Origin: a virus
Length of the DNA: 64,000 nucleotides
IMG/VR virus record: IMGVR_UViG_3300033145_001156
Location: 32,001-96,000 of that record
Reading direction: 5' to 3' (one strand)
Part shown: positions 12,864 through 61,738 of the stretch, in pieces
Layout: every line of letters starts with the position of its first letter
How positions within the stretch are numbered: position 1 is the stretch's first letter
Notes under the pieces: model-generated
Told to the model about the DNA's origin: nothing
The model's database searches: none
What the model saw: only the letters and a program-made list of their open reading frames with translations
Translations under genes and position numbers: made by a program

Positions 12864-12873
12864 TGCTCTTCAC

Positions 12874-13514: not shown

Positions 13515-13539
13515 CAACTAGAGTAGTCTGTACTATACT
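13511..13539 (+). promoter_or_regulatory. sigma70-type promoter of the LAGLIDADG gene
   Basis: TTGACA(13511)-17 bp-TATACT(13534); GAGGAGG RBS before ATG 13578. Confidence 0.75.
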
Positions 13540-13577
13540 ATACCTGAGAATGTTTAGTCCATGAGGAGGTATAGGGC

Positions 13578-45041: not shown

Positions 45042-46095
45042 GAACGAGTGTTGGAGCAAGGGCGGCGGATACGAGCTGCTCATGGAGGAAGTCAAGACAG
45101 ACCACCCCGGGACTCTCGACAGCGGTGAGGCGTTCCGGGCGAGCGAGTTCACCGGCGTCGCGCTGGTGGACATAGCGGACGCTGGGAGCGGGACGATCAC
45201 GCGCGCGATGGGTTTCGGGCTGACGGTTGCTGCCACGGATGACGGCGGGGCGAGTGCCGTGGCGCTCGGGGATCCGCTGTACTACCACTCGGACGACGGG
45301 GCCGTCAACAAGGTCGTGAACGACGGGTACTTCATCGGGTGGGCATGGGGCGTGGTGGCTTCTGGGTCAGCCGTCATCTGCGTGCTGCTGGACCAGGACC
45401 CGGACTACACCAGGTTCATGGACGAGCAGCTCCTGGAGTTCGGCGACGGGGCGGGCACGAAGGAGGACGCGGGGGACGTGCAGATCTGGTTCGACCTGGC
45501 CGACCAGGATTTCATGGTCAGCAATTTACTAGCCGGGAGCGACGTCCGCATTGACACGACCGATGACGGTAGGATCGAGCTGAACAGCCATACTTACGGG
45601 GCCACCATCCCGAACTGGGAAGGTATAGTGCGGGTTAATCCTACGTTTGGCACGGCTAATCCGGCTCTTGACGTGTGCACGTTCAACGTGCAGCCATTAG
45701 TGCTTGATACCGTTACTGGTACCAACATTATTGGTTCGCAGAGCGACATCTACATAAATGGTGGAGTTGGTGATTGGTCGGGAGTGATGCGCGCTGGTCA
45801 GTTCCAGGTCACGGATGATGCTGTTGCTGGGCGTACAATCGCTGGGCCGGTCATGATGATCAGAACATGGCAGCAGTTGATCGCCACAGTGACTAACGGC
45901 GTGTATGCTATCTACTCAGACATAGCAACTGGAGGCACTGGATATACAGCATGGCTGTGGGTGGGCGACGACGGCGGACAGCAGGCTGACTTGGCATCTG
46001 CGGTAAGCGCTACAGTTATTGCAGTTGTCACTTGCGAAGTGGATGGGGCTGCTGTGGGTTACATCCCGGTCTATGACGGATACACACCTGCATAA
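45034..46095 (+). CDS. Capsid decoration/cement protein (DUF2190-like) with long beta-rich extension
   Basis: GVAL...GDPLYY...FIGWA N-domain; between scaffold and major capsid. Confidence 0.55.
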   Translation: MAKNECWSKGGGYELLMEEVKTDHPGTLDSGEAFRASEFTGVALVDIADAGSGTITRAMGFGLTVAATDDGGASAVALGDPLYYHSDDGAVNKVVNDGYFIGWAWGVVASGSAVICVLLDQDPDYTRFMDEQLLEFGDGAGTKEDAGDVQIWFDLADQDFMVSNLLAGSDVRIDTTDDGRIELNSHTYGATIPNWEGIVRVNPTFGTANPALDVCTFNVQPLVLDTVTGTNIIGSQSDIYINGGVGDWSGVMRAGQFQVTDDAVAGRTIAGPVMMIRTWQQLIATVTNGVYAIYSDIATGGTGYTAWLWVGDDGGQQADLASAVSATVIAVVTCEVDGAAVGYIPVYDGYTPA

Positions 46096-46132
46096 CCTAA
46101 GTTGATTTGACGTAAACTGAAAGGGGGGCATC

Positions 46133-46414
46133 GTGCCCAAGGATAAAGACACCAAAACCACGATGAAGGGGCTCGCTTTGAGTGAGGAGCAGAAGAAGGT
46201 GGTGGCCGAGCTGCAGAAGTTCAAGCAGAGGCTCCAGCGGGAGCAGCAGAAGGCCGCCACGATTCAGGACCAGCTCTCTCGACAGGTGGGCGTAATAGCT
46301 GAGGTGACGGGGGTCGTCAAGTATCTGAGGGCGCAGATGCCTTCTCCCGAAGAGATGACGGGGGAAGTGACCTTGGGCGAGAAGATCTCGCTCAGGGAAC
46401 CTAAAACTGAATAG
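46133..46414 (+). CDS. Coiled-coil hypothetical protein
   Basis: Gln/Lys-rich heptad pattern. Confidence 0.55.
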   Translation: MPKDKDTKTTMKGLALSEEQKKVVAELQKFKQRLQREQQKAATIQDQLSRQVGVIAEVTGVVKYLRAQMPSPEEMTGEVTLGEKISLREPKTE

Positions 46415-46490
46415 CATCGAGATACCAGATACATCGTAGACACATCGCGGCCCTCGGAAGACAAGACACTTACACCATAGGAGGGTGAAC

Positions 46491-47660
46491 ATGAGTGGAG
46501 TATTGAAACTGATCGAGAACCTGGACATCCAGCGAGCGGCGATCCACAAGACGTACGACAAGGACGGCGTAAACCTCCGCAGGCGTTGGAACAGTCCGGA
46601 GTGGAACAACAAGGTCGCGGACTTCGTGAACCTGTGGGCGGACGTTGAGCAGGGCATCCGACCCAACTGGTACCTGAGAGAAGTCCTGACCACGAGTGAC
46701 TTCCCGATGCTGTTCGGGGACGTCCTGGACAGGCGGCTCCTGGCTGCCTACCGGCGCGCCCCGGCGACGTGGCGGGACTACATCAGGACCGACACCGTGC
46801 GGGACTTCCGCCAGGTGAAGCGGTTCGACATCAACACCGGCTCGAGGGTCTTGGACCCGGTGGCCGAGAAGGGCGAGTACACCCCGATCGTCAACAACGA
46901 GGGTGAGTACGACTACACGGTCGGGAAGTACGGCAACCAGAAGGACTACTCCTGGGAGGCCATCGTCAACGACGACTTGGGGGCGCTGAAGAGGGCTCCG
47001 GACGAGCTGGCGACGCTAGCGGCCAACACGGAGGCCTGGTTCGCGACGAGCCTGTTTTCGAATGCCGCGGCCTGGGCTTCAGCCTTCGGCGGGCTAGCAT
47101 ACACCGGCACGGCCAGGCTGGGGGTCGCGGCGCTGCAGCTGGGCATCACCACGATGCAGACCAGGACCGATCCCGGCGGAGCGCCGATCAACGCGAGGCC
47201 GATATGGCTGGTGGTCCCCCCGAACCTGGAGTTTCAGGCGAGGTCGATCCTCGAGTCCATCGAGCTGGACTGGGAAGGCGCGACGGTCGCCCCGTTGGGG
47301 GGCAACGCGTTCACCTACGGGACTAAGAACGTCATCAGGGGCTACCTGAAGCTGAGGGTGAACGATTGGCTGCCCATCGTGGGGGCCAACGGCACGGAAG
47401 CATGGTACCTGTTCACCGACTACAACAACATCCAGGCGATGGAAGTCGGGTTCCTGAGGGGCCACGAGACCCCGGAGGTGCGGATGAAGAGTTCCGATTC
47501 CGTGCTCCTGGGCGGCGGGCCTGTCAGCCCGATGGAGGGCACTTTCCTGGACGACGACGTGGTCTACAGGGTCCGGATGATCATCGGCGGGACCCGGATG
47601 GACTGGCGCGGCGCGTACGCTTCCAACGGTACGGCGGCACAGCCTTCGATCCCTGCGTAA
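46491..47660 (+). CDS. Major capsid protein (HK97 fold, Mu gpT-like)
   Basis: TTSDFPMLFG, DFRQVK, EKGEY, SWEAIVNDDLG, LVVPPNLE, FLRG and DWRG motifs. Confidence 0.9.
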   Translation: MSGVLKLIENLDIQRAAIHKTYDKDGVNLRRRWNSPEWNNKVADFVNLWADVEQGIRPNWYLREVLTTSDFPMLFGDVLDRRLLAAYRRAPATWRDYIRTDTVRDFRQVKRFDINTGSRVLDPVAEKGEYTPIVNNEGEYDYTVGKYGNQKDYSWEAIVNDDLGALKRAPDELATLAANTEAWFATSLFSNAAAWASAFGGLAYTGTARLGVAALQLGITTMQTRTDPGGAPINARPIWLVVPPNLEFQARSILESIELDWEGATVAPLGGNAFTYGTKNVIRGYLKLRVNDWLPIVGANGTEAWYLFTDYNNIQAMEVGFLRGHETPEVRMKSSDSVLLGGGPVSPMEGTFLDDDVVYRVRMIIGGTRMDWRGAYASNGTAAQPSIPA

Positions 47661-47666
47661 ACACTT

Positions 47667-47688
47667 GAGGGGGCCTCGCGGCCCCCTC
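47667..47688 (+). terminator. GC-rich hairpin after the major capsid gene (no U tract)
   Basis: GAGGGGGCC-TCGC-GGCCCCCTC. Confidence 0.5.
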
Positions 47689-47704
47689 TGAAGGAGAGGA
47701 GAAT

Positions 47705-48628
47705 ATGGCGAGAGGAGCACTTGGCGTCCAGCCGCCGGACAGTTTCACGCGGCAGGCAGCGAGGGCACTAGCGGTGCTGCCCCCTGCCGGGGCATACGAC
47801 GCTGCGCCCCTGGAACTCGAATCGGGGCTCATGAAGTGGGTGACGCTGAGCGTCACGTACATCCGGGGGGCGGTGAACGGGGCGGTCGACCTCATGATAG
47901 AAACCAGCCCCTACAACCAAGCTGCTGAAGTGCCTGCGGGAGCGCAGGAATGGTTCACTTCGACGCTCTACGTCGCTGGGGCACCACCGCCCGCGCCAGT
48001 GGGCAGCGACGTCTATGAGGAGTTCATCACGTACACCTCCACCCTCGCCACGAATGCGTACACCTACGGACCTATACGGCTCGGGGGGACCATACCTAGG
48101 CTGAAGGTGTCCTGCAGGGAGAGCGGGGTCGTGGGGACCCCGGGGACTTGCCACATAGTAGCGTACTTTGCACCTTATGGAGCGTGATAAATGCCAGGAC
48201 TGACTAACGAAGCCGCGGGGACGGCGACTGCATGTGCAGTTCAGGACGTGTTCGACCTCGTAAACGCAGAATTGGTGTTGCAGGAGACCGGTTCCACGTT
48301 GACTTCTACGGCTGCGGAGCAGAACGTATATGTATCAGAAACACCACTTGGGTGCTTTAAGCCGATAGTCGTGTTCATTTCGCTCGATGCGATGGCAGCG
48401 GGCGCGGATTCTGTGACCATCAGGTCATATTATAGAATCGCGGCAGCACCAGCGGGCTATTTGCTCAGCGATACTCAGACATATACGGGTGTCGATGGAG
48501 GCCTTGCAGGGGGGCGTGTGTTAGTAGCAATAGACCTTTATCCGAACCGCTTTGGATGTCGAGTGACATTACAGAGAGTCGGTGGAGCAGATTATGCGTT
48601 CCCTTGGGCCGTACACTTAGAGAATTAG
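47705..48628 (+). CDS. Two putative virion proteins (47705..48187 and 48191..48628)
   Basis: Beta-rich, Ala/Gly/Thr-rich ORFs directly after the major capsid gene. Confidence 0.55.
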
Positions 48629-48639
48629 GGAGATGAGAT

Positions 48640-49329
48640 ATGGTTCGAGGCTATGATCACTTAGGCATAAACTTCGAGATGCTTATGGATTTACAGATGA
48701 ACGAGGGTATTGGTACAATTGTGTACGATTCTGCAAAAGCTCATCATCCGTTTGTGTTGACAGCTACGGCTACTTGGACGAACCTGGCGAACGATCTGAC
48801 CGTGATAGATTTCAACGCTGCGAACCCAGACCACATCGCGTGCGGGGCTGCTGCATGTGCTGACTTGGACTTCACGGCTGGAGACTTCAGTGGAGCCTGC
48901 TGGGTACGAGGAGATGCCCTTGGTAACAGGAACATCCTGACCCACGGCGTCCACAACGTGGACGGATGGTACTGGTACATAGATGTCAATGGTGCGATGA
49001 ACCTGATCACGAGTCAGGCGGCGGCATATCAAGTTACCATCGGCGCTGCCGGGGACATCGTCGTGGGAACGTGGAGATTCGTGTCTTTTTCAAGGGACGG
49101 CGAGGTCGTGAACATGTACACCAACGGCGCAGAAGTCACCACTATCGCAGGTACTCATGTCGACCCCGTTACGGCAGCGGCCCGGAACTTCTACATCGGA
49201 GTGAACAACGCCGCCGGGGCTGCATGGTATGACGGGTATCTGTGGAGGCCGAGGGTTTGGGATAGGGTTTTAACTGCTGCTGAGTTTCTCTCTCTCTTCG
49301 AGATGGAACGCACATACTTAGGGGCTTAG
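48640..49329 (+). CDS. LamG/concanavalin A-like lectin domain protein
   Basis: DFSGACWV, WRFVSFSRDG...MYTNG, FYIG and RVWDRVLT motifs. Confidence 0.8.
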   Translation: MVRGYDHLGINFEMLMDLQMNEGIGTIVYDSAKAHHPFVLTATATWTNLANDLTVIDFNAANPDHIACGAAACADLDFTAGDFSGACWVRGDALGNRNILTHGVHNVDGWYWYIDVNGAMNLITSQAAAYQVTIGAAGDIVVGTWRFVSFSRDGEVVNMYTNGAEVTTIAGTHVDPVTAAARNFYIGVNNAAGAAWYDGYLWRPRVWDRVLTAAEFLSLFEMERTYLGA

Positions 49330-50538
49330 ATGGGCATAGGACTTGTGGACGACCTCTGGAGAATAGAGCACGGCATACACCACACTCCCCGATTCACCGG
49401 GGACATATGGTTCGTGGACGCTGCGGTCGCAACGAGCGGGAGTGGGGAGACCCCATACCAAGCGTTGAAGACCATCAAGGAGGCAGTGACCCTCGCGAGC
49501 GCGGGGGATGCGATTACGGTCAAGGCTGGGGTTTACAGCGAAGACGCCCTGGACTTGAACAAGGACGGATTAGAGCTATGGGGTGAGATAGGTGTCGTCA
49601 TAGGCAGTTCCGTCGGGGGGACGGTGCTGACGGTCTCCGGGGACTATTGCTGGGTTGAAGAGGTCTGGCTGACCGAGGCTGGTCAGGTAGGCATGGCGCT
49701 CACCGGAGCACGTTGTTACATAATGCGCGTACAGAGCGGACCGGGCAACTCCATCGGGTTCGACGTGGACGGGACAGCCAACGTCCTAGAGCGGTGCCAC
49801 GCCGGGCAGCCCACGACCACCGGGTTCGACGTCGGGGCCAACGGGAACGCGCTGAGGGACTGCGACGCCATCGGCACGGGAGCTGGGACCCGCGGGTTCC
49901 ACGTCTCTGCTGGGCTGAGGAACAAGCTTTTCAACTGCGCGAGCGTGGCGAACACGACGGCGGGATTCGAGATCGCGACCGGCTCCAACAGCAACCTGCT
50001 GGAGAACTGCGCGTCGGGGGCCGGGGACGGGCGCTGGGTGGACGCAGACCTCGCGAGCGTGTGGAGTAATTTCACGTACGACGACACGGTCTACAAGATC
50101 ACGACGTTCAACGGCGGGACGACCTACAACATGTTCAAGATCACCGGGGCGGTCAGGGTGAGCGACATCCACGGGCACGTGGACACGGAGATCCCGAACG
50201 TCGCCAGCGACCTGCACCTGGAGCTGTTCTCCACCGGCGGCGCGGTCAACATAACGAACGGGCCGGGCACCAACATACAGGCGGCGGTCGTCGGAGCGCT
50301 GCTGGTGAGGAACGCGGAGTCGACGGTCAATATAGACCTGGCGGACCCGAACGGGACTCCTGCGTTGGCGGAGAACGCGAACTGGCGCGACCCGAAGACC
50401 ATCATAGACGTAGTGAAGGACGGCGGGGCGGACACCTACATCCGGGCGGTCCTGAGCGTGGCACAGGCCAGCGGGGCGATCCACTGGCACTGCATGTGGG
50501 AGCCGCTGACGGAGTCAGGTTTCCTGGAGGCAGCATAA
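49330..50538 (+). CDS. Right-handed beta-helix (pectin-lyase-like) virion protein
   Basis: GSGETPYQALKTIKEAV...GDAITVKAGVYSE, then repeated GF.V...N.L..C coils. Confidence 0.75.
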   Translation: MGIGLVDDLWRIEHGIHHTPRFTGDIWFVDAAVATSGSGETPYQALKTIKEAVTLASAGDAITVKAGVYSEDALDLNKDGLELWGEIGVVIGSSVGGTVLTVSGDYCWVEEVWLTEAGQVGMALTGARCYIMRVQSGPGNSIGFDVDGTANVLERCHAGQPTTTGFDVGANGNALRDCDAIGTGAGTRGFHVSAGLRNKLFNCASVANTTAGFEIATGSNSNLLENCASGAGDGRWVDADLASVWSNFTYDDTVYKITTFNGGTTYNMFKITGAVRVSDIHGHVDTEIPNVASDLHLELFSTGGAVNITNGPGTNIQAAVVGALLVRNAESTVNIDLADPNGTPALAENANWRDPKTIIDVVKDGGADTYIRAVLSVAQASGAIHWHCMWEPLTESGFLEAA

Positions 50539-50780: not shown

Positions 50781-51200
50781 ATGGCCACGTTCAGCTATGG
50801 AGACCCGCCAGCCACCAATAGGGATTATGTCCGACTTCTTGTGGTGGACATTGATCTGACGACCACGGTTGGGCCGCGCGAAGACTGGAGTGTGTTCTTT
50901 ACAAATGAAGAGATTGACGTGTTTTTAGCCCTGGCAGTCAACAACGTCTGGCGAGCATCGGCCATAGCTCTTCGTGCAATCGCAGTATCGAAAGCACTGA
51001 TGGCGAAGGCATTTTCAATCGGAGACTACTCGGAGAGTGCGACTGAGATTCAGGTTGCAGAAACTCTCAACCGCAAGGCTGAGGAGTTTGACGAATTGGC
51101 TGTGAAATACGGGGGTCCGTATTCCTCCGTACAAAGTTTTGATTTCACGAATTTCGCCTTTAGAGCCAGAACATGGAGGGACGCTCTTGTCGGAGACTAA
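50781..51200 (+). CDS. Head-tail adaptor
   Basis: VRLLV.D, FTNEEI..FL and IGDYS; synteny. Confidence 0.7.
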   Translation: MATFSYGDPPATNRDYVRLLVVDIDLTTTVGPREDWSVFFTNEEIDVFLALAVNNVWRASAIALRAIAVSKALMAKAFSIGDYSESATEIQVAETLNRKAEEFDELAVKYGGPYSSVQSFDFTNFAFRARTWRDALVGD

Positions 51201-52056
51201 GCTGCTTTATCAAGAGGAGAGCTGGTTAAGAAAACAATATTGGGATAATGAGTTAGGATTCCGCAAACTAGCAGACTTGGCTGGATGTGGGACTTCTACC
51301 ATTCGCTACTGGTTTCGCAAGTTCGGCATTCCAAGTCGAGATATGTCAGAAGCGATAAGGCTAAGCAAATCAAAAGGCGATGAACTCTATCGTAACGTTG
51401 AATGGCTGCGAACCCAATATATTGATAATGGGTTTAGCATGCAAATGATAGCTGACATATCTGGATGCACAGCAGCTACTATTCTGCACTGGCTGAGGAA
51501 ATTTGACATCCCCCGCCGGGGCGGATCAGAAGCAATTAAATTGTCTCATGACAAGGGGCGGCATAACCGTGTAGTAGATGACGAATTGAAGCACAAGTTG
51601 TCAGAGGGTGTAAAGGCAGCTTACGCAAGAGGTGACTATGATAAAGAGGAATATCGTCAACGTCGTTCTGAAACCATGAAGCGGCTTTGGGCAGAGGGGG
51701 TATTTGACCATGTTGGGCCAATGCGATCCGAGTGGATAAAATCGGCATGGGCTTCTGGGAAATTGAATGGGAACATGGAAAATAATTCAAATTGGCGTGG
51801 TGGATTGTCTTTTGAACCCTATACGCCAAAGTTCAATGAGGAATTTAAGCAATCAATTCGTGAGCGCGACAACTATACATGTGGCATTTGTTGGCTTCCG
51901 GGAAAGAGTGTTCACCATATAAATTATGTGAAGAAAGACACAAATCTAGAAAACTGTATCATCTTATGCAAATCCTGTCATGGTGTCACAAATCATAATC
52001 GTGACTACTGGCAACCCAGACTATCAGCACTGATGGAAGCCAGGGCGAACCGATAA
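51187..52056 (+). mobile_element. HNH homing endonuclease with tandem HTH repeats
   Basis: Two LY..WLR.QY.DN...GC...TI..W.RKF.IP repeats, NWRGG, and RDNYTC...VHHINY...LCKSCH; AT-rich. Confidence 0.85.
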
Positions 52057-52493
52057 TGGCTAGGAGCGGACTTCTAAAGGGCGTTCGCCCAACCACATTA
52101 TTGAAGAATCAGCTCTATGAGCTGGAATTGCTGCATTTTTGCACGATCCAGGTCGCAACGGAAGGTGCAGACGACGGGTTCGGGCAACCGATGCTGGCCT
52201 GGGAGGACGAGACCACCGACGTTCACTGCCGGCTGAACTGGCGGTCGGTGAACGAGCAGTTGTGGCAGTTCGAGGGAGTCGTCGCCGACTACAAGCTATT
52301 CGTGGACATTGACGTGATAGTTCCCGAGACTAGGCAGATAGTTGACGTTACTGATAAGGATGGGAACTTGATAGACGCTGGGCCATTCGATATCATAAGC
52401 ACCCAGAGATTCGATATGGGCCCAGACACGGGACAGCACCATAAAGAGTTGCTGCTGAAGAGGGCTGCGAGGTCGGGAAGGGGCAAGGGATGA
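52056..52493 (+). CDS. Head closure/stopper protein
   Basis: DGFGQP...W...VHCRL...HHKELLL; synteny. Confidence 0.7.
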   Translation: MARSGLLKGVRPTTLLKNQLYELELLHFCTIQVATEGADDGFGQPMLAWEDETTDVHCRLNWRSVNEQLWQFEGVVADYKLFVDIDVIVPETRQIVDVTDKDGNLIDAGPFDIISTQRFDMGPDTGQHHKELLLKRAARSGRGKG

Positions 52494-53320
52494 GGATCCT
52501 GGTGACGGGTGACGCCGGTTGGCTCGGCGGGCACATCTCCAACCATCTGGAGGGCGAGGGGCACGTGGTCGTCGGTTTCGACCTCCTGCCGGGCGACAGG
52601 ATGGTCGGCGACCTCGTTGACTTGAAGCCCGAGCACCTAGAGGGGATCGAGGCGGTCGTCCACTGCGCGGCCATCGGTGACGTGTACGTGGCGAACAGGA
52701 ACCCCGCACTGGCGTTCAAGGCGTCGGCTGAGGGCACGGCGGCCCTGGTGGCGGCCTGCCCAGAGGACCTGAGGGTGTTCGTCCACATCAGCACGTGGGA
52801 GGTCTACGGGCCTCATTCTCCTCACATCGAGGTCTTGGAGACGTCCCAGTGCAGGCCGGAGCACCCCTATGCCGCCGCGAAGCGCGCTGGGGAACTGGCG
52901 CTGGTGAGCACGATCAGGACGCCGTGGCGCATCCTGAGGCTGGGGAGCGCGTACGGGCACGGGATGAGGGAGAGCTCGCTAATCTCCAGGTTCATCGAGA
53001 AGATGAGGAGCGGGGAGCCGCTGACCATTCACGACGACGGGAAGCAGTTCAGGCAGTGGGTGTGGACGGGGGACATGTGCAGAGCAGTCAGTTCAGCACT
53101 GGGGGATGTCCCGAACGGGGTGTACAACGTCGTCGGGAGCGAGGCTGTCACCGTGCTGGGGCTAGCGGAGATGCTGGGCGGAGAGATCGTCCACCAGGAG
53201 CGGAGGAAGTCAGAAACGCCGTGCTACCTGGTGTCGGGGGCCAAGGCGAAGTTCTGGCTCAGGTGGGAGCCGGAGAAGGGATTCAAGGAAGGGGTGGCAG
53301 AGATTGTACGGAGCACGTGA
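52490..53320 (+). CDS. NAD-dependent sugar-nucleotide epimerase/dehydratase
   Basis: ILVTGDAGWLG, VHCAA, ST.EVYG, YAAAK and DGKQFRQWV motifs. Confidence 0.9.
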   Translation: MRILVTGDAGWLGGHISNHLEGEGHVVVGFDLLPGDRMVGDLVDLKPEHLEGIEAVVHCAAIGDVYVANRNPALAFKASAEGTAALVAACPEDLRVFVHISTWEVYGPHSPHIEVLETSQCRPEHPYAAAKRAGELALVSTIRTPWRILRLGSAYGHGMRESSLISRFIEKMRSGEPLTIHDDGKQFRQWVWTGDMCRAVSSALGDVPNGVYNVVGSEAVTVLGLAEMLGGEIVHQERRKSETPCYLVSGAKAKFWLRWEPEKGFKEGVAEIVRST

Positions 53321-53840
53321 CCCGGGGAAGCACAGGGAGTCCCTCGTGAGGCTGGTGAGGGAGTCCGGCGCAAGGAACATCGCGGAGGTGGGCGTCTACA
53401 AGTGCGCGACCTCGCTGGCGGTCCTGATGAACTGCGACGTGGACAGGTACTACATGGTCGACCCCTGGAGGGACTACTGGGACTCCGGGGACGGGGAGGC
53501 GGACCGGGGCTCCCCGAAGGACGTGGACTGGGAGGCCCTGTTCAAGGGTGCACTGGAAGTGGAGCAGCGGTTCACCGTGGCGGAAGTCTTGAGGCTCCCG
53601 TCGGTCAGCGCGGCGAAGATGTTCTACCCCGGGGAGCTGGACCTGGTGTTCATAGACGGCGACCACTCCTACGAGGGTGCGAGGGCGGACATAGAAGCGT
53701 GGACACCGGCGGTGAAGGAGGGCGGGATCCTGTCGGGGCACGACTACTACACGAGGTGGCCGGGAGTCGTCAGGGCGGTCGACGAGGCGTTCGGAGACTT
53801 GCACTTCATGAAAGACACGGTGTGGTGGACTCAATTATAG
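53304..53840 (+). CDS. Class I SAM methyltransferase (Methyltransf_24-like)
   Basis: AEVGV, VDPW, VFIDGDHSYE and GGILSGHDY motifs. Confidence 0.85.
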   Translation: MYGARDPGKHRESLVRLVRESGARNIAEVGVYKCATSLAVLMNCDVDRYYMVDPWRDYWDSGDGEADRGSPKDVDWEALFKGALEVEQRFTVAEVLRLPSVSAAKMFYPGELDLVFIDGDHSYEGARADIEAWTPAVKEGGILSGHDYYTRWPGVVRAVDEAFGDLHFMKDTVWWTQL

Positions 53841-54463
53841 TCTACACGGCGATAATAGGCGACATAGACGACCTGTTGCCAACGAGGACAGGAGGGGTAG
53901 CATGGGTTGATGTCCGAAAAAGAAGAAGCCCAGGGTGGGCGATAAGGCAAGCAAGAAGGCAGTTGACAGACCCGAGAAGGGAGTCTCGGCTGTACAAGAT
54001 ACTGAGCCACCAGTGGATACCGGGGACGAGCATCTGGATAGACGGGACGATCCAGTTGAAGGTGAGTCCAAGGGAGTTGGCGCAGTACCTTGGGGAGAAT
54101 GACATGGCGGCGTTCCGGCACCCGTCGAACGACTGCGCCCTGAGGGAGGCCGAGATAGTCGCCAGGGTGGGGAAGGCGACCGAAGAAGCGTTGAGGCAGG
54201 CCGAGAGGTACAGGGAGGCCGGATTCCCGGAGCACCACGGGATGATGGCTTGCGGGGTTCTGATCCGCAGGCACACCGAGGCAGTAGAACGATTCAACGA
54301 CATGTGGTGGAGCGAGTATTGTCGAGGATGCGTCAGGGACCAAGTGAGCTTCAACTATGTGTTGTGGAAGTTGGACATGAAGTGCAGCGTGATTCCGGGT
54401 GACTCGTACAACAACAGGTTCATACGAAAGGTGTCACATGTCAAACCGACGGGTTACGGCTAG
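53822..54463 (+). CDS. DUF616 (TOD1/MUCI70-like) putative glycosyltransferase
   Basis: VYTAIIG..DDL, KILSH, SIWIDG, FRHP..DC...EA and RDQVSFNY motifs. Confidence 0.75.
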   Translation: MVDSIIVYTAIIGDIDDLLPTRTGGVAWVDVRKRRSPGWAIRQARRQLTDPRRESRLYKILSHQWIPGTSIWIDGTIQLKVSPRELAQYLGENDMAAFRHPSNDCALREAEIVARVGKATEEALRQAERYREAGFPEHHGMMACGVLIRRHTEAVERFNDMWWSEYCRGCVRDQVSFNYVLWKLDMKCSVIPGDSYNNRFIRKVSHVKPTGYG

Positions 54464-55199
54464 GGAAGTATTTTGCCAGGTTCAGGGGCACATGACGACC
54501 GGAGAGGGATACTCGGTCATCCGGCTGGGCGACGGGGAGTGCCGGTTGATGGGCTGGCCCGACAGGACCCCGAGGAGGGAACTCCAGCAATCATTGAGGT
54601 ACTGGTTCGGGCATACGGACTTCAGCCGGGAAGACGTGGACGCGATGGCGAACCTCCTGAGGCAGGCGATAGCGGTTGCCGACGTGGTGGGGGTCCCGGG
54701 CAAGGAGCAGCTGGCTGACGGGCGCAAGGGCTGGGCGAACGTGGAGAGGTACCTGGACGAATATCATCTGCTGGACGAGGACGCGTGGCTGTGCGACAAC
54801 GAGCTGCACATCCGGATGGCCGAGCAGGGGCTGTACGAGGAGCTGCTGCTGGGACTCCCTGACATTAGCATCATCACTTGCAGGGACGTCGGGTTCCTGA
54901 TGGAGTCGTTCTTCAGGATCGGGGCGGTCACAGTCTACGAGGTTCCTGCCGAGGCGCAGACAGCCGGGTGGAAGCCGACGAGCCACTGGCCGGACAGGTT
55001 CGACGAGTTGTACAAGGAGGTCGAGGTCACGTATCCTGGCCAACTGTTCCTGGTAGCCGCCGGGCCGCTGGGCAAGGTGTACTGCCAGTGGGTGAAGGAG
55101 CGGGGCGGGGTGGCCCTGGATGCAGGCTCGATCTTAGATGGCTGGGTCGGGATACGGAGCAGGACGTACCTCAAGGAGAGGGACTACTCGCTATGCTGA
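54438..55199 (+). CDS. GT-D fold (DUF1792-like) glycosyltransferase
   Basis: SVIRLGDGE, ADVVG and LVAAGPLGKVYC...ALDAGS.LDGW motifs. Confidence 0.75.
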   Translation: MSNRRVTAREVFCQVQGHMTTGEGYSVIRLGDGECRLMGWPDRTPRRELQQSLRYWFGHTDFSREDVDAMANLLRQAIAVADVVGVPGKEQLADGRKGWANVERYLDEYHLLDEDAWLCDNELHIRMAEQGLYEELLLGLPDISIITCRDVGFLMESFFRIGAVTVYEVPAEAQTAGWKPTSHWPDRFDELYKEVEVTYPGQLFLVAAGPLGKVYCQWVKERGGVALDAGSILDGWVGIRSRTYLKERDYSLC

Positions 55200-55831
55200 A
55201 GGTGTCGGTGGACCTGGACAAGTGGTTGGATGAGTACCCGTGGTACCGGGACGTGCTGGACGTCCTCGACGACTACCAGGAGGGGCCTGAGACGGCTGCC
55301 CTCTGGACGCCGTGGAAGGGCGGGCTGTGGATGAAGGAGCGGGTCTGCGAGATCGCGGAAGTGTGCGCGGAGAGGTTCCCTGGGGACTTCATCGAGATCG
55401 GGGCCTACCTGGGGCAGACCACGAGGGGGCTGGCGGAGGTGGCCAGGGAGCACGACCGGCGGGTGGTGGTGATAGACCCGTGGGACCCGGACTCGCTGTG
55501 TTGCCAGGGCTGGGAGTACAACGTGTTCCTGCGCAGCATCAGGGGGTACTCGGACATCATAGACGTCTACCGGCTGTCTTCGTTCGAGGACGAAGCCATC
55601 GAGATCATCGAGGGCAGGGAGCTCGCGTTCGCGTTCGTGGACGGGCTGCACATCTACGAGGCGGCGCTGTCGGACATCAAGGCATGCGCGCACTGCCATG
55701 GGGTCATAGCCGTGGACGACCTGCCGAACTGCATTGACGTGTGGGACGCGTTCATGGAGGGCGTCGAGGTGACTAGGAGGGTTCCGTTGTGGAGGAAGTA
55801 TCATCGTGAAGGCTATCTATTGCCACGTTGA
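55193..55831 (+). CDS. Class I SAM methyltransferase (Methyltransf_24-like)
   Basis: IEIGAYLG, IDPW, FVDGLH.YE and GVIAVDD motifs. Confidence 0.8.
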   Translation: MLKVSVDLDKWLDEYPWYRDVLDVLDDYQEGPETAALWTPWKGGLWMKERVCEIAEVCAERFPGDFIEIGAYLGQTTRGLAEVAREHDRRVVVIDPWDPDSLCCQGWEYNVFLRSIRGYSDIIDVYRLSSFEDEAIEIIEGRELAFAFVDGLHIYEAALSDIKACAHCHGVIAVDDLPNCIDVWDAFMEGVEVTRRVPLWRKYHREGYLLPR

Positions 55832-56408
55832 ACCGCCGGAAGTTGACATCATAATACCAACGCTGAATTTCAGGGCAGCATTAGACAACTATCACGGTTG
55901 GCCCGATCCTGGCGTGGAAACTTGGTGGTTGACAGTCATGGTAGATGAAAAACAAGAAGGGTTCACTCGGACAGTCAACCGTGGACTTGCCGAGACGAAG
56001 TCTCCGTACATCTGTATTATAGGGGACGACGCGGTCCCAGAGACCGAGGGTTGGCTGTTAGAACTGAGGAAGGCGCTGGAGGAGGGGTACGGGTTCGCGT
56101 TCCCGACCATGCCTTGCAGGACGGCTCCCATATCGAAGGCGAGGAGGGCGTCCCCGACAGGGCAGTTGGTGGAGATACCCCACGGGCCTTACGGGTGCGT
56201 CCTGATGAAGAGAGAAGTCTTGGGGGAGGTCGGGCTGCTGGACGAGGCGTTCGCGCACTACGGGTCGGATGTTGACCACCAGAGGCGATCTAGTTTCAAG
56301 TCGGTGTGGGTTGCGCACGTGTACGTCCGCAGGGAGCTGCACGAGCCGAGGGAACCCTGGTGGACGGAGGACGGGATAAAATTCCGTGAAAGGTGGGGAG
56401 ATCGATGA
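55806..56408 (+). CDS. GT2-like glycosyltransferase
   Basis: DIIIPTL, GFTRTVNRGL, IGDDA and VGLLDEAF.HYGSDVD motifs. Confidence 0.82.
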   Translation: MKAIYCHVEPPEVDIIIPTLNFRAALDNYHGWPDPGVETWWLTVMVDEKQEGFTRTVNRGLAETKSPYICIIGDDAVPETEGWLLELRKALEEGYGFAFPTMPCRTAPISKARRASPTGQLVEIPHGPYGCVLMKREVLGEVGLLDEAFAHYGSDVDHQRRSSFKSVWVAHVYVRRELHEPREPWWTEDGIKFRERWGDR

Positions 56409-56559
56409 GATGTTATCTGAGAGGCACGTCATAGTTGGGGTTGCTGAACACGGTACTAGGATGTCTTGTCAATCGTGTGCTCATCAAGGTATGTGACAGC
56501 AACACCAAGAAAATCGTAGGTTGGCGGTGGGGCAAGGCAACAGATTTTCCTAGGAAAGC

Positions 56560-57396
56560 ATGATGAGGATTGGGTGGATTTTTGATCAGGCGCTATCGCT
56601 CCACACGGGCGGGCAGATGCTTTCCAGCAGGCTGCTGCTGAGGAGGTCACCAGGCTGGGCCGACGTGAAGGTCATATCGCCGTACCACGACAGTTGGCTG
56701 GGCGAGTGCGACGCATACATCGTGAACCAGTGCCGGTACTTCAGGCCCGACCAGTTGGCGAGGATCATGGAGAAGCCGTACATCTGGCTGTTCCACGACG
56801 CGCTGCACAACTGTATGCACCAGGGGTTCATCCTGAAGGCGCTGCTGAGGAAGGCGACGGGCTGCATGTTCAAGTCGCCTTCCCACCAGGAGAACGTGTG
56901 CGGCAAGTGGCCGGAAGCGAAGGAAGTCCCCGGGAAAGCGGTCTACGCGACGCCGATAGACCTGGACATGTTCTACCCGGGGGAGAAGACGAGAGGCACG
57001 ATCTGGCTGGGGAACTACGTGCCGGAGAAAGGCGTGAGAGAGGCCGTCGCGTGGGCCGAGGAGAACGAGGAGGTCGTGGACTTCTTCGGGTTCGGGGACG
57101 CGTTCATGTTCAGGATAGCCAGCCCCTGGGCCAGGTTCTATCCGGTGCTGCCCTACAGGGAGGTGCCGCAGATCCTCAGGCGGTACGAGAGGCTGGTGTT
57201 CCTGCCCAAGTGCCCAGAGGCCGCCGGTCGGGTGGTGGTGGAGGCGCTGCTGTCGGGCTGCGAGGTGGTCACCAACGACATGATCGGGTTCAAGTCGTTC
57301 GACTGGTGGTCGGACGAGCCAGGGACTTTGCGCAAAGCGCTGAGGGAGCGAGAGGGGGAATTCTGGGAGACGGTCAAGGAGATGTTAGATGGATAA
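56560..57396 (+). CDS. GT4-like glycosyltransferase
   Basis: GGQ N-terminal motif, PEKGV and PEAAGRVVVEALLSGC. Confidence 0.82.
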   Translation: MMRIGWIFDQALSLHTGGQMLSSRLLLRRSPGWADVKVISPYHDSWLGECDAYIVNQCRYFRPDQLARIMEKPYIWLFHDALHNCMHQGFILKALLRKATGCMFKSPSHQENVCGKWPEAKEVPGKAVYATPIDLDMFYPGEKTRGTIWLGNYVPEKGVREAVAWAEENEEVVDFFGFGDAFMFRIASPWARFYPVLPYREVPQILRRYERLVFLPKCPEAAGRVVVEALLSGCEVVTNDMIGFKSFDWWSDEPGTLRKALREREGEFWETVKEMLDG

Positions 57397-57967
57397 AGAA
57401 TATCCGGTAGGGGTTGCCTACCAAGAAGGCCCAGGTCACACGGGGCTTGCTGGTATGCATGGGGGGAGTGATCCTGGGTTAGGTTCTATAGGTGGACCAA
57501 GCGGCGGTCCACCAGCTACGGAAGAACAAACCAATTATGTTAAGAGACTACTTTTCAAACAATCAGATACGGAAATGATGCAATCTCTAGGTTCTGGCCA
57601 ACGTTTGGAGAATGGTTTTCTCTACTACAAGACTATGGATAAGCGTCCTGAGGGGTTTTGGGATTTGTCGCGTAGGGAAGCGGGAAAAGCAGGGGTTGTA
57701 CTTGGTGCACGTTATATAAAATGGCGGAATTCGATAGATGTTTCAAAAATGAGCAAAGCACAAGCATCCACTTTTTTGGATTCAGCAACTAACCGTTTAG
57801 GTGGTTCGCTACAGGGATTTGTCAGATTGCAAACAGGAGGAAGTCGACAAAGTACCGATAGGTATTTTCAAGGGTTAGTGAATGAAACGCGAACTTATAT
57901 AAAGAAGTATCCTGATGGTGAGGAAATGAGAAAGGCTCTTGGAAAAAGTTATGGGTTCGGTAGATGA
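57389..57967 (+). CDS. AT-rich hypothetical protein with N-terminal YPVGVAYQE motif
   Basis: 192-aa ORF; N-terminal motif shared with 58597. Confidence 0.6.
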   Translation: MDKEYPVGVAYQEGPGHTGLAGMHGGSDPGLGSIGGPSGGPPATEEQTNYVKRLLFKQSDTEMMQSLGSGQRLENGFLYYKTMDKRPEGFWDLSRREAGKAGVVLGARYIKWRNSIDVSKMSKAQASTFLDSATNRLGGSLQGFVRLQTGGSRQSTDRYFQGLVNETRTYIKKYPDGEEMRKALGKSYGFGR

Positions 57968-58114
57968 GTCAAGTCACCGCAGTTCACAGGGCATACTACA
58001 CGAAGGTGAAGGGTTGGGCGAAAAACACGTACTGCGGATGTTATAATTGTCTGCTGACTTGTGGGAGCGCAACTTGTTCAGCTTTCACGAGGGCGGCTGG
58101 CTGAGGAGGGCGAG

Positions 58115-58588
58115 GTGAGCTTCAAGGTCGACGTAGAGACGAAGTTCACTCCTGAGCGCCAGATACACGCGGCCTGCGACGTCGTGATGACCGACTGGTG
58201 CGAGTACTCGGGGGAGATAGTCCAGCAGATGGCGCGGGCGAACGTCACGGAGGGGATCGGGCCGGGGCCGCACCCCCATCCCGGGAGGGAGGACACCGGG
58301 GCGCTGAGGGAGTCCGTCCAGTTCGTGGTGGACGAGCCGGAGAGGTACGTCTGGAGGGCGCAGGTCGGGCCGGACAAGAACGCACCTGCGCTGGAGGGCG
58401 GGACTCCCCCGTGGTTGTACGGATGGTTCCTGGAGGTGGGCTGGCACTCCCCGGTGGGCAGGTTCTGGCGGTACCCGTGGCTGAGACCAGCGCTGCTGAA
58501 CAGCATCACGTGGGTGAGGAGGGACCTAGACAGAGCGGCAGATACACTGGCCCGGATGTTGAACAGGTTGAGCAGAGGATGGAAATAG
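58115..58588 (+). CDS. HK97 gp10-like tail completion protein
   Basis: DTGALRES, YG.FLEVG and YPWLRPAL motifs. Confidence 0.75.
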   Translation: MSFKVDVETKFTPERQIHAACDVVMTDWCEYSGEIVQQMARANVTEGIGPGPHPHPGREDTGALRESVQFVVDEPERYVWRAQVGPDKNAPALEGGTPPWLYGWFLEVGWHSPVGRFWRYPWLRPALLNSITWVRRDLDRAADTLARMLNRLSRGWK

Positions 58589-58596
58589 GAGGGGAG

Positions 58597-58806
58597 ATGA
58601 AGTACCCTGTTGGAGTAACATACCAAGAAGCGGAGACGAAGGGTAGGATGGGCGGGGAGAAGGCGCAGGGGCCGGGAGGGTTCTGCGTGTGCCCCGAATG
58701 CGGGGAGGAGATCCCCCACGAGACGGGGAAGCCATGCTTCGGCGAGGAGTGCCCGGAGTGCGGAGCCAAGATGACGGCCAAGGGCGGAAAAGAGGAAGCT
58801 AAATAG
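58597..58806 (+). CDS. Small Zn-ribbon protein with N-terminal YPVGVTYQE motif
   Basis: GPGGFCVCPECG...H..G.PC...CPECG; AGGAGGGG RBS. Confidence 0.7.
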   Translation: MKYPVGVTYQEAETKGRMGGEKAQGPGGFCVCPECGEEIPHETGKPCFGEECPECGAKMTAKGGKEEAK

Positions 58807-59231
58807 TGATCTCCGTCGTGCAGGTCCTCCGCACTTGGCTGCTCCTACAGCCTCTCATCATACCGCAGGTCGGGATGAAGATATGGGGGATGCCGGGGAT
58901 ACCCTCTGGTGAAGTTAACAACATGCCGCAGAAGGCTATCACGATGTATCAGAACCCTGGGACGGGCAGGTGGGGGGTCCCACTCTACAACGCATCCATC
59001 CAGTTCAGATGCTACGGGGCGACGTCGTGGGAGGCAGAGGAGGTCTGGGGGGCGCTGTACGACACACTCCACAGGGTGAACTGCATCAACGTCACCATCG
59101 GGGCTGATGACTATACCATATACGTCTCGCAGTTGGGGAGCGGGCCGACTGAGCAGCAAGAGCCGCTGACTGACTGGCCGTTCCAGCTCGCATCATTTTC
59201 ATTTATAGCCTGCGAGAGCACGATGCCTTGA
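58806..59231 (+). CDS. Tail terminator (DUF3168-like)
   Basis: IQFRCYG...AEEV..ALYD.L; synteny. Confidence 0.65.
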   Translation: MISVVQVLRTWLLLQPLIIPQVGMKIWGMPGIPSGEVNNMPQKAITMYQNPGTGRWGVPLYNASIQFRCYGATSWEAEEVWGALYDTLHRVNCINVTIGADDYTIYVSQLGSGPTEQQEPLTDWPFQLASFSFIACESTMP

Positions 59232-59275
59232 TATTATCATACCTATAAGTGTAGACAATTCAAGAGGAGGGATAT

Positions 59276-59767
59276 ATGTTCGAGCAGTTAGTAATGGGAG
59301 TTAGCAAGCACCACGGGGCGTTCGTCGCGAGGATCAAAGGGCAGAAGCTACTCCAGGTCGGCACGGCGTCCAGGGGCGCGTTCGCTGAGTGGTTCCGGCG
59401 GCGAGGCAGGGAGGTCGAGGTCGATGGGGAGGGTGAGTACGACGCAGCGTACTCGCAGGGATTACTAGATGGGATGAACGAGGAGGACGTCGCGAAGCTG
59501 GTCAAGAAAGTCTTGGGACAAGCACCGGTGTTCGTGTCCTCGGTTCCTTCTCCCAAGTGGCGGCACACGAACGTGAGGCGCATGGCGGCGGACTACGAGC
59601 GAATCCTGAGCAAGTTCAAGATCGAGGCGTTCGCGTACTGGGGTGGCAGGATGCTATGCGTCGTGGCGAAGAAAAAGAAGAGGCGGGTCGCCAAGGCAGA
59701 AGTTGTCAAGACGGAACCAGTCAGGACAGAAGAGAAGCATGACTTCTCGGAATGGAGGAGTGGATGA
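59276..59767 (+). CDS. Degenerate SAM-methyltransferase-like protein
   Basis: LLQVGTASRG, YDAAYSQGLL and SVPS. Confidence 0.45.
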   Translation: MFEQLVMGVSKHHGAFVARIKGQKLLQVGTASRGAFAEWFRRRGREVEVDGEGEYDAAYSQGLLDGMNEEDVAKLVKKVLGQAPVFVSSVPSPKWRHTNVRRMAADYERILSKFKIEAFAYWGGRMLCVVAKKKKRRVAKAEVVKTEPVRTEEKHDFSEWRSG

Positions 59768-60705
59768 TACTCCAGGTAGGCATGACGTCGTTCTCGCCGC
59801 AGCATGGCTACGGGAGGATAGAGGAACCCATGGTTGACGCGCTAGCGGCGGCTGGCGCGACCATCCTGAAAGACCATGAATTCGGCTGGAATTATAGACT
59901 TTTATGGGGTTATCCCCATGCATATATTATTTCTAAGAGCGGTTACGGTGATGACATCATACTTCATACCATGTTCGAGTTCCCGACCTTGCCCAAGCAT
60001 TGGCCCGGTTTGTACAACCGGTACCGCTTGCTGTGGTTGCCGACGACTTGGTGCGAGGAGGTCTACAGGGACAACGGTGTGACAGCCGACATCATGGTGA
60101 GCGGCTACGGGATAGACGAGGAAGACTTCCCGGAGCTGACAAGGGAGCGGGAGGCGCACGACCACCCGTTCACGTTCCTGGCGGTGGGGCACCAGTTCAC
60201 CGACAGGAAGGGTTCGCACCTGGCGCTGGAGGCATTCATGAAGTTGGGGCTGAAGGACGCCAGGCTGCTGCTCAAGATCCGGGACCCGATGGTCAAGAGC
60301 ATCTCCGGGGATTTCAAGGGAGAGGTCGTGGTCGTCGGCGGGTTCCTGGGCAACAACGACTACTGGAACCTGCTCGCCATGAGTGATGTGCTCGTCTACC
60401 CCCACTGGGGGGAGGGGTTCGGGCTGATCCCCTTGGAGTACGGTCGGACGGGACTACCAGGGATCGTCACCGACTACTCAGGGCCGAGGGACTACCTGAA
60501 CGACGAGTGTTGGCTGAGGTTGGAGATGAGGAAGGGCAAGCCCGACGTGGAGCAGCTGATGGCGCAGATGCTCTGGTGTTATGAGCACCAGGACGACGTG
60601 CGCCGGATGGGGCGGAGCGCCGCGAAGTACGTGGCCGAGGAATACACGTGGGAGGCTTCCGGGCGCAAGGCGTATCGGAAGCTGAAGGAAAAACTAGGAG
60701 GTTAA
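59764..60705 (+). CDS. GT4-like glycosyltransferase
   Basis: HGYG, TMFE, DRKG and YPHWGEGFGLIPLE...G motifs. Confidence 0.88.
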   Translation: MILQVGMTSFSPQHGYGRIEEPMVDALAAAGATILKDHEFGWNYRLLWGYPHAYIISKSGYGDDIILHTMFEFPTLPKHWPGLYNRYRLLWLPTTWCEEVYRDNGVTADIMVSGYGIDEEDFPELTREREAHDHPFTFLAVGHQFTDRKGSHLALEAFMKLGLKDARLLLKIRDPMVKSISGDFKGEVVVVGGFLGNNDYWNLLAMSDVLVYPHWGEGFGLIPLEYGRTGLPGIVTDYSGPRDYLNDECWLRLEMRKGKPDVEQLMAQMLWCYEHQDDVRRMGRSAAKYVAEEYTWEASGRKAYRKLKEKLGG

Positions 60706-60709
60706 AACT

Positions 60710-61258
60710 ATGCCAGGAGGCGGAATACGTGCCTCAACGCCTGACGAACTCTTTTTCGATCAGGGTTCGATCACGTTCGAGGGCACGGAGATAGGAGCTA
60801 CGGTTGGGCCTACCACCTGGAGGATCGTGAAAGAAGACTACATCCCGGACCTCTGCGGAGCGAAGGGGGAGATCAGGGGCACCAAGTACCGGGTGAAGGA
60901 GGAGGCGTTCCTGCAGGTCACCATGACTGCATGGCTGCTGACCAACCTGAGCTGGGCAGTGTTCGGGATCGATGTGTCTTCGGACGTATCTTCCGAGGTG
61001 ATGGGTTCGGTCGTCGGGGCGTCGAGTTCGGAGGTTGGCTGCATCGCCGACGAGTACTACGGGACCGTGCGGTTCAAGGGGACGGACTGCAACGGGTTCG
61101 ACACCACGATCTACCTGATGAACGCGGAGGTCGAGGGAGACCTTGAGGTCGCGTTCCCCGGCGTGAGTGAGGTGCAGTACACCGTGACGTTCAAGGCGAC
61201 GTATGCTGCGGCGCACCCGACGGTTCGACCGTGGCAGGTCATACGCGAGATTGCGTGA
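60710..61258 (+). CDS. Major tail tube protein
   Basis: IGAT.G, IYLMNA and YTVTFKA; upstream of chaperones and tape measure. Confidence 0.7.
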   Translation: MPGGGIRASTPDELFFDQGSITFEGTEIGATVGPTTWRIVKEDYIPDLCGAKGEIRGTKYRVKEEAFLQVTMTAWLLTNLSWAVFGIDVSSDVSSEVMGSVVGASSSEVGCIADEYYGTVRFKGTDCNGFDTTIYLMNAEVEGDLEVAFPGVSEVQYTVTFKATYAAAHPTVRPWQVIREIA

Positions 61259-61294
61259 TAAAAAAGAGGGGCTTTCGAATCTCCGAAAGCCCCT
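61259..61294. terminator. Hairpin after the tail tube gene; A-run upstream gives a U tract on the - strand
   Basis: AGGGGCTTTCG-AATCTC-CGAAAGCCCCT. Confidence 0.55.
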
Positions 61295-61315
61295 ACCATG
61301 AAAGGAGACTGAGGA

Positions 61316-61738
61316 GTGACTGAGGAACTGAAGAAGTTGGCAGAGGAAGGGCTGGACCTGGACGGGCTCGTCCCGGAGGTCACCATCAGGTACAGGGGGG
61401 AGGAATACCCGATCAAGTACCTGACGCCGATAGAGGAGGTGCAGGTCCAGCGGCTGAGCAAGAAGCTGTCCTGGACGATCAAGAAGCGCGAGGCCGTGGA
61501 CAAGCTGATCGAGGCTCTGTCCGAGGACGATGACGAGCAGTTCGAAGAGCTCCTGGGCAAGAGTGAGGAGTGGAACGAGAGGATCGCCGACGCCTTCAAC
61601 GACATCGTCAGCATCTCTATCCCGGCCATGAAGGAGGGCATGTCGGACATGCCCTCGGTGCAGATGACGGCCATGAGCACGTTCATCCTGAAGGTGATGG
61701 GGGCCGGACGGGTCCCTCCTCAGCCCGAGAACTCGTAG
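61316..61738 (+). CDS. Tail assembly chaperone (G-like)
   Basis: Acidic helical protein between tail tube and tape measure. Confidence 0.7.
   Translation: MTEELKKLAEEGLDLDGLVPEVTIRYRGEEYPIKYLTPIEEVQVQRLSKKLSWTIKKREAVDKLIEALSEDDDEQFEELLGKSEEWNERIADAFNDIVSISIPAMKEGMSDMPSVQMTAMSTFILKVMGAGRVPPQPENS

Follow-up and report, generated by a model that had tools for sequence, protein, structure and literature searches.

Background

To our knowledge, glycosylation of virions by phage-encoded enzymes has been demonstrated experimentally only in mycobacteriophages. In these phages, the C-termini of the capsid and tail tube subunits carry the covalently bound glycans, and virion glycosylation alters the recognition of the particles by antibodies. 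It is described for the clusters O, F (Che8) and C (Myrna) in passages of PMC11600133, PMC12363180 and PMC12619734, which cite Freeman et al. 2023 and report the capsid and tail tube subunits as the targets. The cluster O mycobacteriophages (Corndog/Shida) encode an O-methyltransferase and three glycosyltransferases (GTs) between the portal and the protease. In streptococci, the serine-rich repeat adhesin Fap1 is glycosylated by GtfA/B, Gtf3 and dGT1, the last of which has a GT-D domain, DUF1792, that transfers glucose (Glc) onto Fap1 already modified with Glc-GlcNAc (GlcNAc, N-acetylglucosamine) (PMC5063993). In this paper, we analyze a cassette of sugar-enzyme genes embedded among the neck and tail genes of a virus, at 52490-60705 of a stretch of 64,000 nucleotides (positions 32,001 to 96,000 of the IMG/VR record IMGVR_UViG_3300033145_001156), hereafter the window, to which all coordinates refer unless another locus is named.

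The record is a complete virus genome of 105,622 bp with a 114-bp direct terminal repeat, and the DNA of 52000-61500 has no near-identity match among 50,697 deposited phage genomes. A sequence-only reading of the window had described the cassette as the second of two glycan-building clusters (clusters 1 and 2), and had proposed that both serve a methylated-oligosaccharide pathway for virion proteins. As presented below, we consider it moderately likely that the cassette serves to decorate virion proteins with a methylated oligosaccharide in the cytoplasm, with the tail tube protein as the most likely target.

Results

Enzymes of the cassette

All the genes that had been named in and around the cassette were confirmed at the positions given for them, on the + strand, by comparisons with Pfam, PHROG and the ESM Atlas. 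The main block (52490-57396) opens with the gene of a nucleoside diphosphate (NDP)-sugar epimerase/dehydratase of 276 amino acids (aa) (52490-53320), an extended short-chain dehydrogenase/reductase (SDR) matching the family Epimerase (PF01370, E-value 2.5e-37). Its motifs TGDAGWLG, STWEVYG and YAAAK supply the Rossmann GxxGxxG signature and the S/T...YxxxK triad, and its best relatives in PDB are dTDP-glucose 4,6-dehydratases and UDP-glucose 4-epimerases, with which a 4-epimerase, a dehydratase or a decarboxylase would each be compatible. The next gene (53304-53840) encodes MT24a, an S-adenosylmethionine (SAM) methyltransferase of the family Methyltransf_24 (PF13578, 1.3e-14), which is probably a sugar O-methyltransferase and is 46-49% identical to homologues in three viral loci (L002, L003 and L028; L numbers denote loci throughout). 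A second enzyme of this family, MT24b (55193-55831; PF13578, 3.3e-10), is encoded further downstream, and both groups retain the glycine of motif I, DxxH and one more Asp, which are invariant in the alignment of Methyltransf_24 homologues. Between the two methyltransferase genes lie those of a DUF616/TOD1_MUCI70-type glycosyltransferase-like protein of 213 aa (53822-54463, with its start re-placed; PF04765, 2.2e-17), in which WxDG and RDQxSF are invariant in the homologue alignment, and of a GT-D-like glycosyltransferase of 253 aa (54438-55199; PF22882, 1.3e-10, above the cut-off). The latter has the motifs that mark the GT-D type, namely RLGDGE, which fits the N-terminal metal-binding motif R-x-G-D-x-E and contains DxE, and a C-terminal glycine-rich and ALDxG region of the form G-x-x-G-K...A-x-D-x-G, all invariant in nine homologues; its profile matches the DUF1792 GalT1 structures 4PFX/4PHR (E-value 4.5e-4) with the DxE motif aligned, and no deposited phage genome gave a tblastn match to the GT-D-like proteins. 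In three relatives, L002 (5337-6737), L003 (3548-5002) and the complete genome G006 (67813-69363), a single ORF encodes both, with MT24b as the N-terminal part and GT-D behind it, while in the window (54438-55831) each has its own gene and the order is reversed, GT-D coming first. The fusion appears to link methylation to the GT-D transfer step.

The block continues with GT2b, a short GT2 enzyme (GT-A type) of 200 aa (55806-56408; Glycos_transf_2, PF00535, 3.4e-6, above the cut-off), which contains the DxD-like motif IIGDDA and has homologues in L003, L028, L106 and many loci adjacent to major capsid protein (MCP) genes. It ends with GT4b, a divergent GT4-like enzyme (GT-B type; 56560-57396), which matches Glycos_transf_1 at 5e-3, below the cut-off. 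A profile built from eight GT4b homologues matches the GT4 structure 4XSO (1e-4) across the E-x7-E region, and GT4b is found together with GT-D genes in more than nine viral loci. Two further proteins of the cassette are encoded between the tail terminator and the tail tube. One is a class I methyltransferase-fold protein of 163 aa (59276-59767), which has no Pfam match and was recognized from its ESM Atlas model (TM-score 0.76 to Methyltransf_11/23 clusters); its gene is kept beside that of GT4c in L098 and L100. The other is GT4c itself (59752-60705; Glycos_transf_1, PF00534, 2.5e-13), a GT4 glycosyltransferase with the motif EGFGLIPLE, encoded directly upstream of the tail-tube gene. The E-x7-E pattern is present in both GT4b and GT4c. 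The occurrence of eight sugar-enzyme genes among nine consecutive open reading frames (ORFs) is not due to chance. Degeneracy of the catalytic motifs would have spoken against the proposed pathway; since they are intact, this objection does not arise, the small methyltransferase-fold protein being the sole one with a degenerate SAM loop (motif I, VGTASRG).

The cassette is tightly packed into the structural operon. The stop of the head-tail adaptor gene overlaps the start of the epimerase gene, starts and stops overlap through the enzyme run, the GT4b stop overlaps the start of a 192-aa ORF, and the stop of the methyltransferase-fold gene overlaps the start of GT4c, whose end is separated by four bases from the start of the tail-tube gene. 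No + strand terminator was found inside the cluster. Judged by this arrangement, translation of the cassette is coupled to that of the neck and tail genes.

Conserved synteny in relatives

Relatives were found by the use of homologue alignments: the GT-D alignment led to 14 viral loci, and the tail-tube alignments to more viral and metagenome contigs. When viral contigs were scanned with single proteins, the tail tube returned no locus and the GT-D protein one. At least seven diverged relatives carry the cassette upstream of their tail-tube gene, and the order GT4b, MT24, GT2b, DUF616, MT24::GT-D, GT4c, tail tube, tape measure is found in L002, L003, L028/L029 and L106, with neck genes preceding the whole cassette in L028 and L106. 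The adjacency of GT4c and the tail tube extends to L098-L101 and L105, at tube identities down to 27%.

The most informative relative is G006, the record behind L028, which is a complete phage of 116 kb. It has in common with the window phage the adaptor, Neck1, the tail terminator, the tail tube, the tape measure and the cassette. In a phmmer search, neither the capsid, portal and protease of the window phage nor its cluster-1 enzymes and serine-stalk protein had a homologue in G006. Cluster 2 is thus an autonomous module travelling with the tail module, and the suggestion that clusters 1 and 2 form one pathway is not supported, for G006 has the second cluster without the first or the stalk. 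If the acceptor is a phage protein, it is to be expected among the tail proteins common to both phages, and we propose the tail tube as the main one because it is abundant, exposed and the constant neighbour of GT4c.

The stalk in question, a protein of 1197 aa (32302-35895), offers another explanation, namely that cluster 2, working downstream of cluster 1, extends a glycan on this protein in the way that dGT1 acts on Fap1. DUF1792, to whose GalT1 structures the GT-D profile was aligned at the DxE motif, adds Glc to Glc-GlcNAc-Fap1 (PMC5063993), and the stalk is 57% Ser/Thr with GT4, FkbM and GT2 genes of its own alongside. However, G006 carries the entire cluster 2 without a homologue of the stalk or of cluster 1, no serine-stalk ORF occurs in the other viral contigs that bear GT-D (the longest being 55 kb), and in the window the stalk gene is 17 kb away while the cassette tracks the tail-tube gene. 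The sole S/T-rich protein of G006 is a signal-peptide-bearing, hydrolase-like protein. This protein, of 902 aa (G006 45413-48121, - strand; L032), is encoded downstream of the tail genes; it has a hydrolase-like body behind a signal sequence of lipoprotein-like type, and a Pro-Thr linker at the C-terminus. Since the cassette is present in G006 without a stalk, cluster 2 does not need it, and its absence from both G006 and the other GT-D contigs led us to reject the idea that the cassette requires the stalk as a partner. We therefore regard the stalk as an improbable main substrate; since the characterized GT-D relative extends the O-glycan of Fap1, it may still be an extra acceptor.

The tail tube protein as the candidate acceptor

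The tail tube protein, which we favour as the main acceptor of the oligosaccharide, is encoded at 60710-61258 on the + strand (phrog_885, 2.2e-5). An AlphaFold2 (AF2) model made with four sequences reached a predicted local distance difference test score (pLDDT) of 37, and one made with 17 sequences reached 67, which settles the fold and not the orientation of the loops. The latter model matches solved tail tubes, including those of HFTV1, mycobacteriophage Douge and lambda (gpV). It contains a Ser-rich loop of varying length (residues 87-112), modelled as disordered, in which S91 and S100 are invariant in the 17 homologues.

Directly after the tail-tube gene there is a GC-rich hairpin with a 12-bp stem (61267-61294), which probably stabilizes or attenuates the transcript behind the most abundant tail protein. 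A C-terminal Ala is found in the decoration-like protein, the capsid protein, ORF 47705, the lectin-fold protein and the beta-helix protein (44989-50538), as well as in the tail tube. Genome-wide, 14 of the 165 ORFs end in Ala, compared with five of six consecutive head-associated proteins. The pattern is possibly due to chance; a shared C-terminal acceptor tag was considered and rejected, given that these proteins have no common S/T tag and that G006 has no such Ala-ending pattern.

Solubility of the enzymes and genes of other pathways

In the complete genome we counted seven GT-like genes (GT4a, GT2a, DUF616, GT-D, GT2b, GT4b and GT4c, of the types GT-A, GT-B and GT-D) and five methyltransferase-like genes (FkbM, Methyltransf_11, two Methyltransf_24 and one recognized from its fold only). 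These numbers agree with the earlier tally of about seven GT-like genes of at least three fold types and about five methyltransferases, and, as had also been stated, every transferase gene lies in the late region. The cassette enzymes have no hydrophobic segments at all. With the exception of the tape measure and antisense frames, no ORF of the complete genome has more than three hydrophobic segments, and the few small membrane ORFs resemble lysis genes. Also absent from the complete genome are Thymidylat_synt (PF00303), the family of thymidylate-synthase-type hydroxymethylases, for which the control genomes scored; the priming transferase Bac_transf; GtrA; and tyrosine and serine integrases/resolvases. 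Taken together, the soluble enzymes, the late location and the missing genes of other pathways point to a soluble, late, cytoplasmic pathway, which argues against both O-antigen conversion and glycosylation of DNA bases. The same two possibilities had been thought less likely on the contents of the window, and the complete genome, which lacks a hydroxymethylase as well as GtrA, a priming transferase, a multi-pass membrane protein and an integrase, bears this out.

Lipid-linked wall polymers can be substrates of GT2 and GT4 enzymes that are soluble or peripheral, such as TarM, TarS and TarP. On this precedent, the cassette enzymes might instead act late in infection, from the cytoplasm, on a glycopolymer of the host envelope such as a teichoic-acid-like polymer or a lipid-linked precursor, which could block superinfection or keep the progeny from sticking to debris. 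A GT-D homologue in Alteromonas halophila lies within a glycan cluster of GT2, sulfotransferase, GT61 and RgpF genes, and one neighbour in L003 matches a PHROG labelled 'GtrB-like', both of which would suit such a role. Yet GtrA, a priming transferase and a flippase-like membrane protein are all missing from the complete genome; its lack of an integrase means that lysogenic conversion is not involved; and a host polymer fits poorly with five transferases and two methyltransferases kept within the neck and tail operons of several lineages. We consider this explanation unlikely. That the enzymes glycosylate and methylate the bases of the phage DNA as an anti-restriction hypermodification is very improbable: phage transferases are classically DNA-modifying (PMC12619734) and a Methyltransf_24 homologue of a Cellulophaga phage is labelled 'DNA methyltransferase', but this label was derived from the generic PF13578 alone, a hydroxymethylase of the thymidylate-synthase type is missing from the complete genome, the genes lie in a late neck/tail operon instead of with replication genes, and the GT-D, DUF616, GT4 and SDR epimerase families are typical of glycan assembly.

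Other genes of the late region

The genes of the head, neck and tail region are on the + strand throughout. The portal (36246-37820) is followed by a Methyltransf_11 protein (42163-43239), located before the prohead protease, and then by the protease, a decoration-like protein and the major capsid protein (46485-47660; Phage_capsid_4, 1e-36). Between the capsid and the cassette lie two unknown ORFs and the genes of a ConA-like lectin-fold protein, a beta-helix protein and an HNH/MerR endonuclease, followed by a weak match to a head-tail adaptor. The lectin-fold protein (Laminin_G_3, 3e-18) and the beta-helix protein of 402 aa, encoded at 48640-50538 between the capsid and neck genes, may be capsid-attached fibres that bind or cut glycans. 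The endonuclease (51139-52056), which combines an HNH domain with MerR-type helix-turn-helix repeats, immediately precedes the neck genes; a homologue lies directly before the tube gene in L104 (4316-5236), and further ones are found close to DUF616 loci. The enzyme seems to be a mobile endonuclease that marks points of rearrangement in the structural operon. The candidate head-tail adaptor/stopper (52056-52493) matches phrog_615 weakly (E-value 9e-3); in G006 and L106, a homologue precedes neck1.

Downstream of the main block, the order is an unknown ORF, Neck1, a zinc-ribbon ORF and the tail terminator, followed by the 163-aa methyltransferase-fold protein, GT4c, the tail tube, chaperones and a tape measure of 1712 aa. 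The first of these, absent from the earlier description, is a protein of 192 aa (57389-57967, +), which received no assignment from Pfam, PHROG or the ESM Atlas and for which no counterpart was found in G006. The Neck1/tail-completion (gp10-like) protein (58061-58588, +) matches phrog_5 weakly (8e-4), and its homologues adjoin the terminator in G006, L029 and L106. Likewise newly recorded is the small zinc-ribbon ORF of 75 aa (58579-58806, +), with a CxxC...CxxC pattern and weak Zn_ribbon matches. It shares with the 192-aa ORF an N-terminal motif, (E/K)YPVGV(A/T)YQE, with a Gly-rich stretch behind it (58597-58630 and 57389-57430, respectively), and the post-portal proteins of L004 and L008 contain an internal segment similar to its zinc-ribbon part (40-51% identity). 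The tail terminator (58806-59231, +; phrog_123, 7.7e-6), which like the tail tube is better supported than the adaptor and Neck1, is conserved in G006, L098 and L106. Sequence searches of PDB with the adaptor, Neck1 and the DUF616 protein gave nothing useful.

Related enzymes in other phage lineages

Enzymes of the same families are found among virion genes in other, unrelated lineages. The members of the L004 group have the terminase, portal and major head protein genes, then an enzyme block of about 10 kb, and then the major tail protein gene. In L004 itself (6672-16205; IMGVR_UViG_3300021467_000016), this block encodes a GT4b-like enzyme, a GT9, two tandem GT-D enzymes, a protein resembling 3'-phosphoadenosine-5'-phosphosulfate (PAPS) reductase, a sulfotransferase and an FkbM methyltransferase, and such a block is also carried by its relatives L007-L015. 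Its content hints at a sulfated virion glycan. In L005, a GT-D gene lies between the portal and the protease/capsid genes. Homologues of DUF616 occur at 60 viral loci, where the order MCP, GT2b, DUF616 is recurrent; at least 22 of the 60 are near virion genes, a count to be read against a tiny reference set and the fact that most genes of small phages are near structural genes anyway.

The cultured Cellulophaga phage phi12:1 (NC_021791; L097:5537-7209) encodes a Methyltransf_24 protein and a DUF616-like transferase side by side (gp39 and gp40), between the head morphogenesis gene and the prohead protease/major capsid genes; relatives of this phage have the pair as well. The annotation of gp39, 'DNA methyltransferase', was drawn from nothing but PF13578, which is a generic class I family; the protein is probably a glycan methyltransferase.

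Discussion

The pathway that we propose would draw on host nucleotide sugars, one of them re-tailored by the SDR epimerase/dehydratase of the phage. Up to five soluble transferases (GT4b, GT2b, DUF616, GT-D and GT4c) would then assemble an oligosaccharide stepwise on a virion protein, before or during the assembly of the particle and under late expression, while the two Methyltransf_24 enzymes would O-methylate the sugars, one of them working with the GT-D step. The acceptor would be the tail tube protein, perhaps at its exposed Ser-rich loop, and maybe other surface proteins as well; the glycan may shield the particle or mediate its adhesion, and the order of the steps may differ from the one in which the enzymes are listed here. 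The earlier proposal of a multi-step methylated-oligosaccharide pathway for virion proteins is partly borne out and is the best-supported reading, in view of the motifs, the solubility of the enzymes, the coupling, the synteny and the missing genes of other pathways, while its virion acceptor is a point that we infer.

Several observations weigh against this proposal. The acceptor and the glycan are predicted from the genes alone. Neither the capsid nor the tail tube has an S/T-rich C-terminal tail of the kind that serves as the acceptor in mycobacteriophages, and the tail-tube loop is of low confidence in the AF2 model, so that its conserved serines could be purely structural. Solubility is no proof of a protein acceptor, since soluble prophage transferases such as TarP act on wall teichoic acid. 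The sole characterized GT-D relative acts on a serine-rich repeat protein, and the window phage encodes one. The epimerase is not conserved in G006, and L104, a contig of 6.6 kb, has a tube homologue without GT4c upstream. Moreover, the enzymes are not homologous to those of Corndog: comparison of Shida gp33-36 (Corndog gp35-38) with all proteins of the window by blastp and phmmer gave no meaningful match.

A wider and more tentative picture, which we think possible and rather doubtful as a whole, is that in a clade of uncultivated siphophages of about 100 kb the cassette co-evolves with the tube gene and coats the whole tail with a defined methylated oligosaccharide, that in the window phage a second, independent pathway glycosylates the serine-stalk fibre, giving a two-layer 'glycocalyx', and that sister lineages make sulfated versions with the PAPS-reductase-like protein and the sulfotransferase. 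The locus itself suggests that the strategy of the mycobacteriophages exists outside that group too, with unrelated enzyme families, in a far more elaborate form and tied specifically to the tail tube, and related cassettes recur between head and tail genes in several uncultivated lineages. Confirmation of the pathway would broaden the view of what the surface of phage particles is composed of, provide a function for GT-D-like and DUF616 proteins in viruses, and flag probable mis-annotations such as that of a 'DNA methyltransferase' from PF13578 alone. As a cultured carrier of the core enzyme pair, Cellulophaga phage phi12:1 could be tested at the bench.

Compared with the described systems, the cassette is closest in its organization to that of the Corndog/Che8 type, as both have a block of soluble methyltransferases and glycosyltransferases within the virion structural operon. 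It differs from the mycobacteriophage systems in that it is larger, with five transferases, two to three methyltransferases and an epimerase, in addition to the separate cluster 1; in that it employs the GT-D-like and DUF616 families; in its position by the neck and tail-tube genes instead of between portal and protease; and in that their acceptor tails at the C-terminus have no equivalent here, where the system is known from genes only. With the Fap1 system it shares a GT-D enzyme with a DxE motif, a genome that also encodes a Ser-rich repeat protein, and, as proposed, sequential cytoplasmic O-glycosylation by several soluble transferases. The relationship to dGT1 is distant (profile E-value 4.5e-4; PF22882 here and PF08759 there), no GtfA/B-specific family turned up in Pfam scans of the window proteins, among the ORFs of the complete genome there is no multi-pass membrane candidate for the SecY2 of an accessory Sec system, and, unlike the Fap1 system, the cassette also occurs in the complete relative G006 without a Ser-rich repeat protein. 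The window phage does not match GtrABC O-antigen conversion, which combines a GtrA flippase, a membrane-anchored GtrB, a polytopic GtrC and a temperate phage, and it lacks the deoxynucleoside monophosphate (dNMP) hydroxymethylase of the thymidylate synthase family on which T4-like glucosylation of hydroxymethylcytosine (hmC) depends. The phi12:1 pair consists of the same two families side by side in the head gene region, limited to two genes at about 30% identity. We know of no characterized phage system with GT-D-like or DUF616 enzymes, and what is new here is the set of enzymes, the size of the pathway and its tight link to the tail tube.

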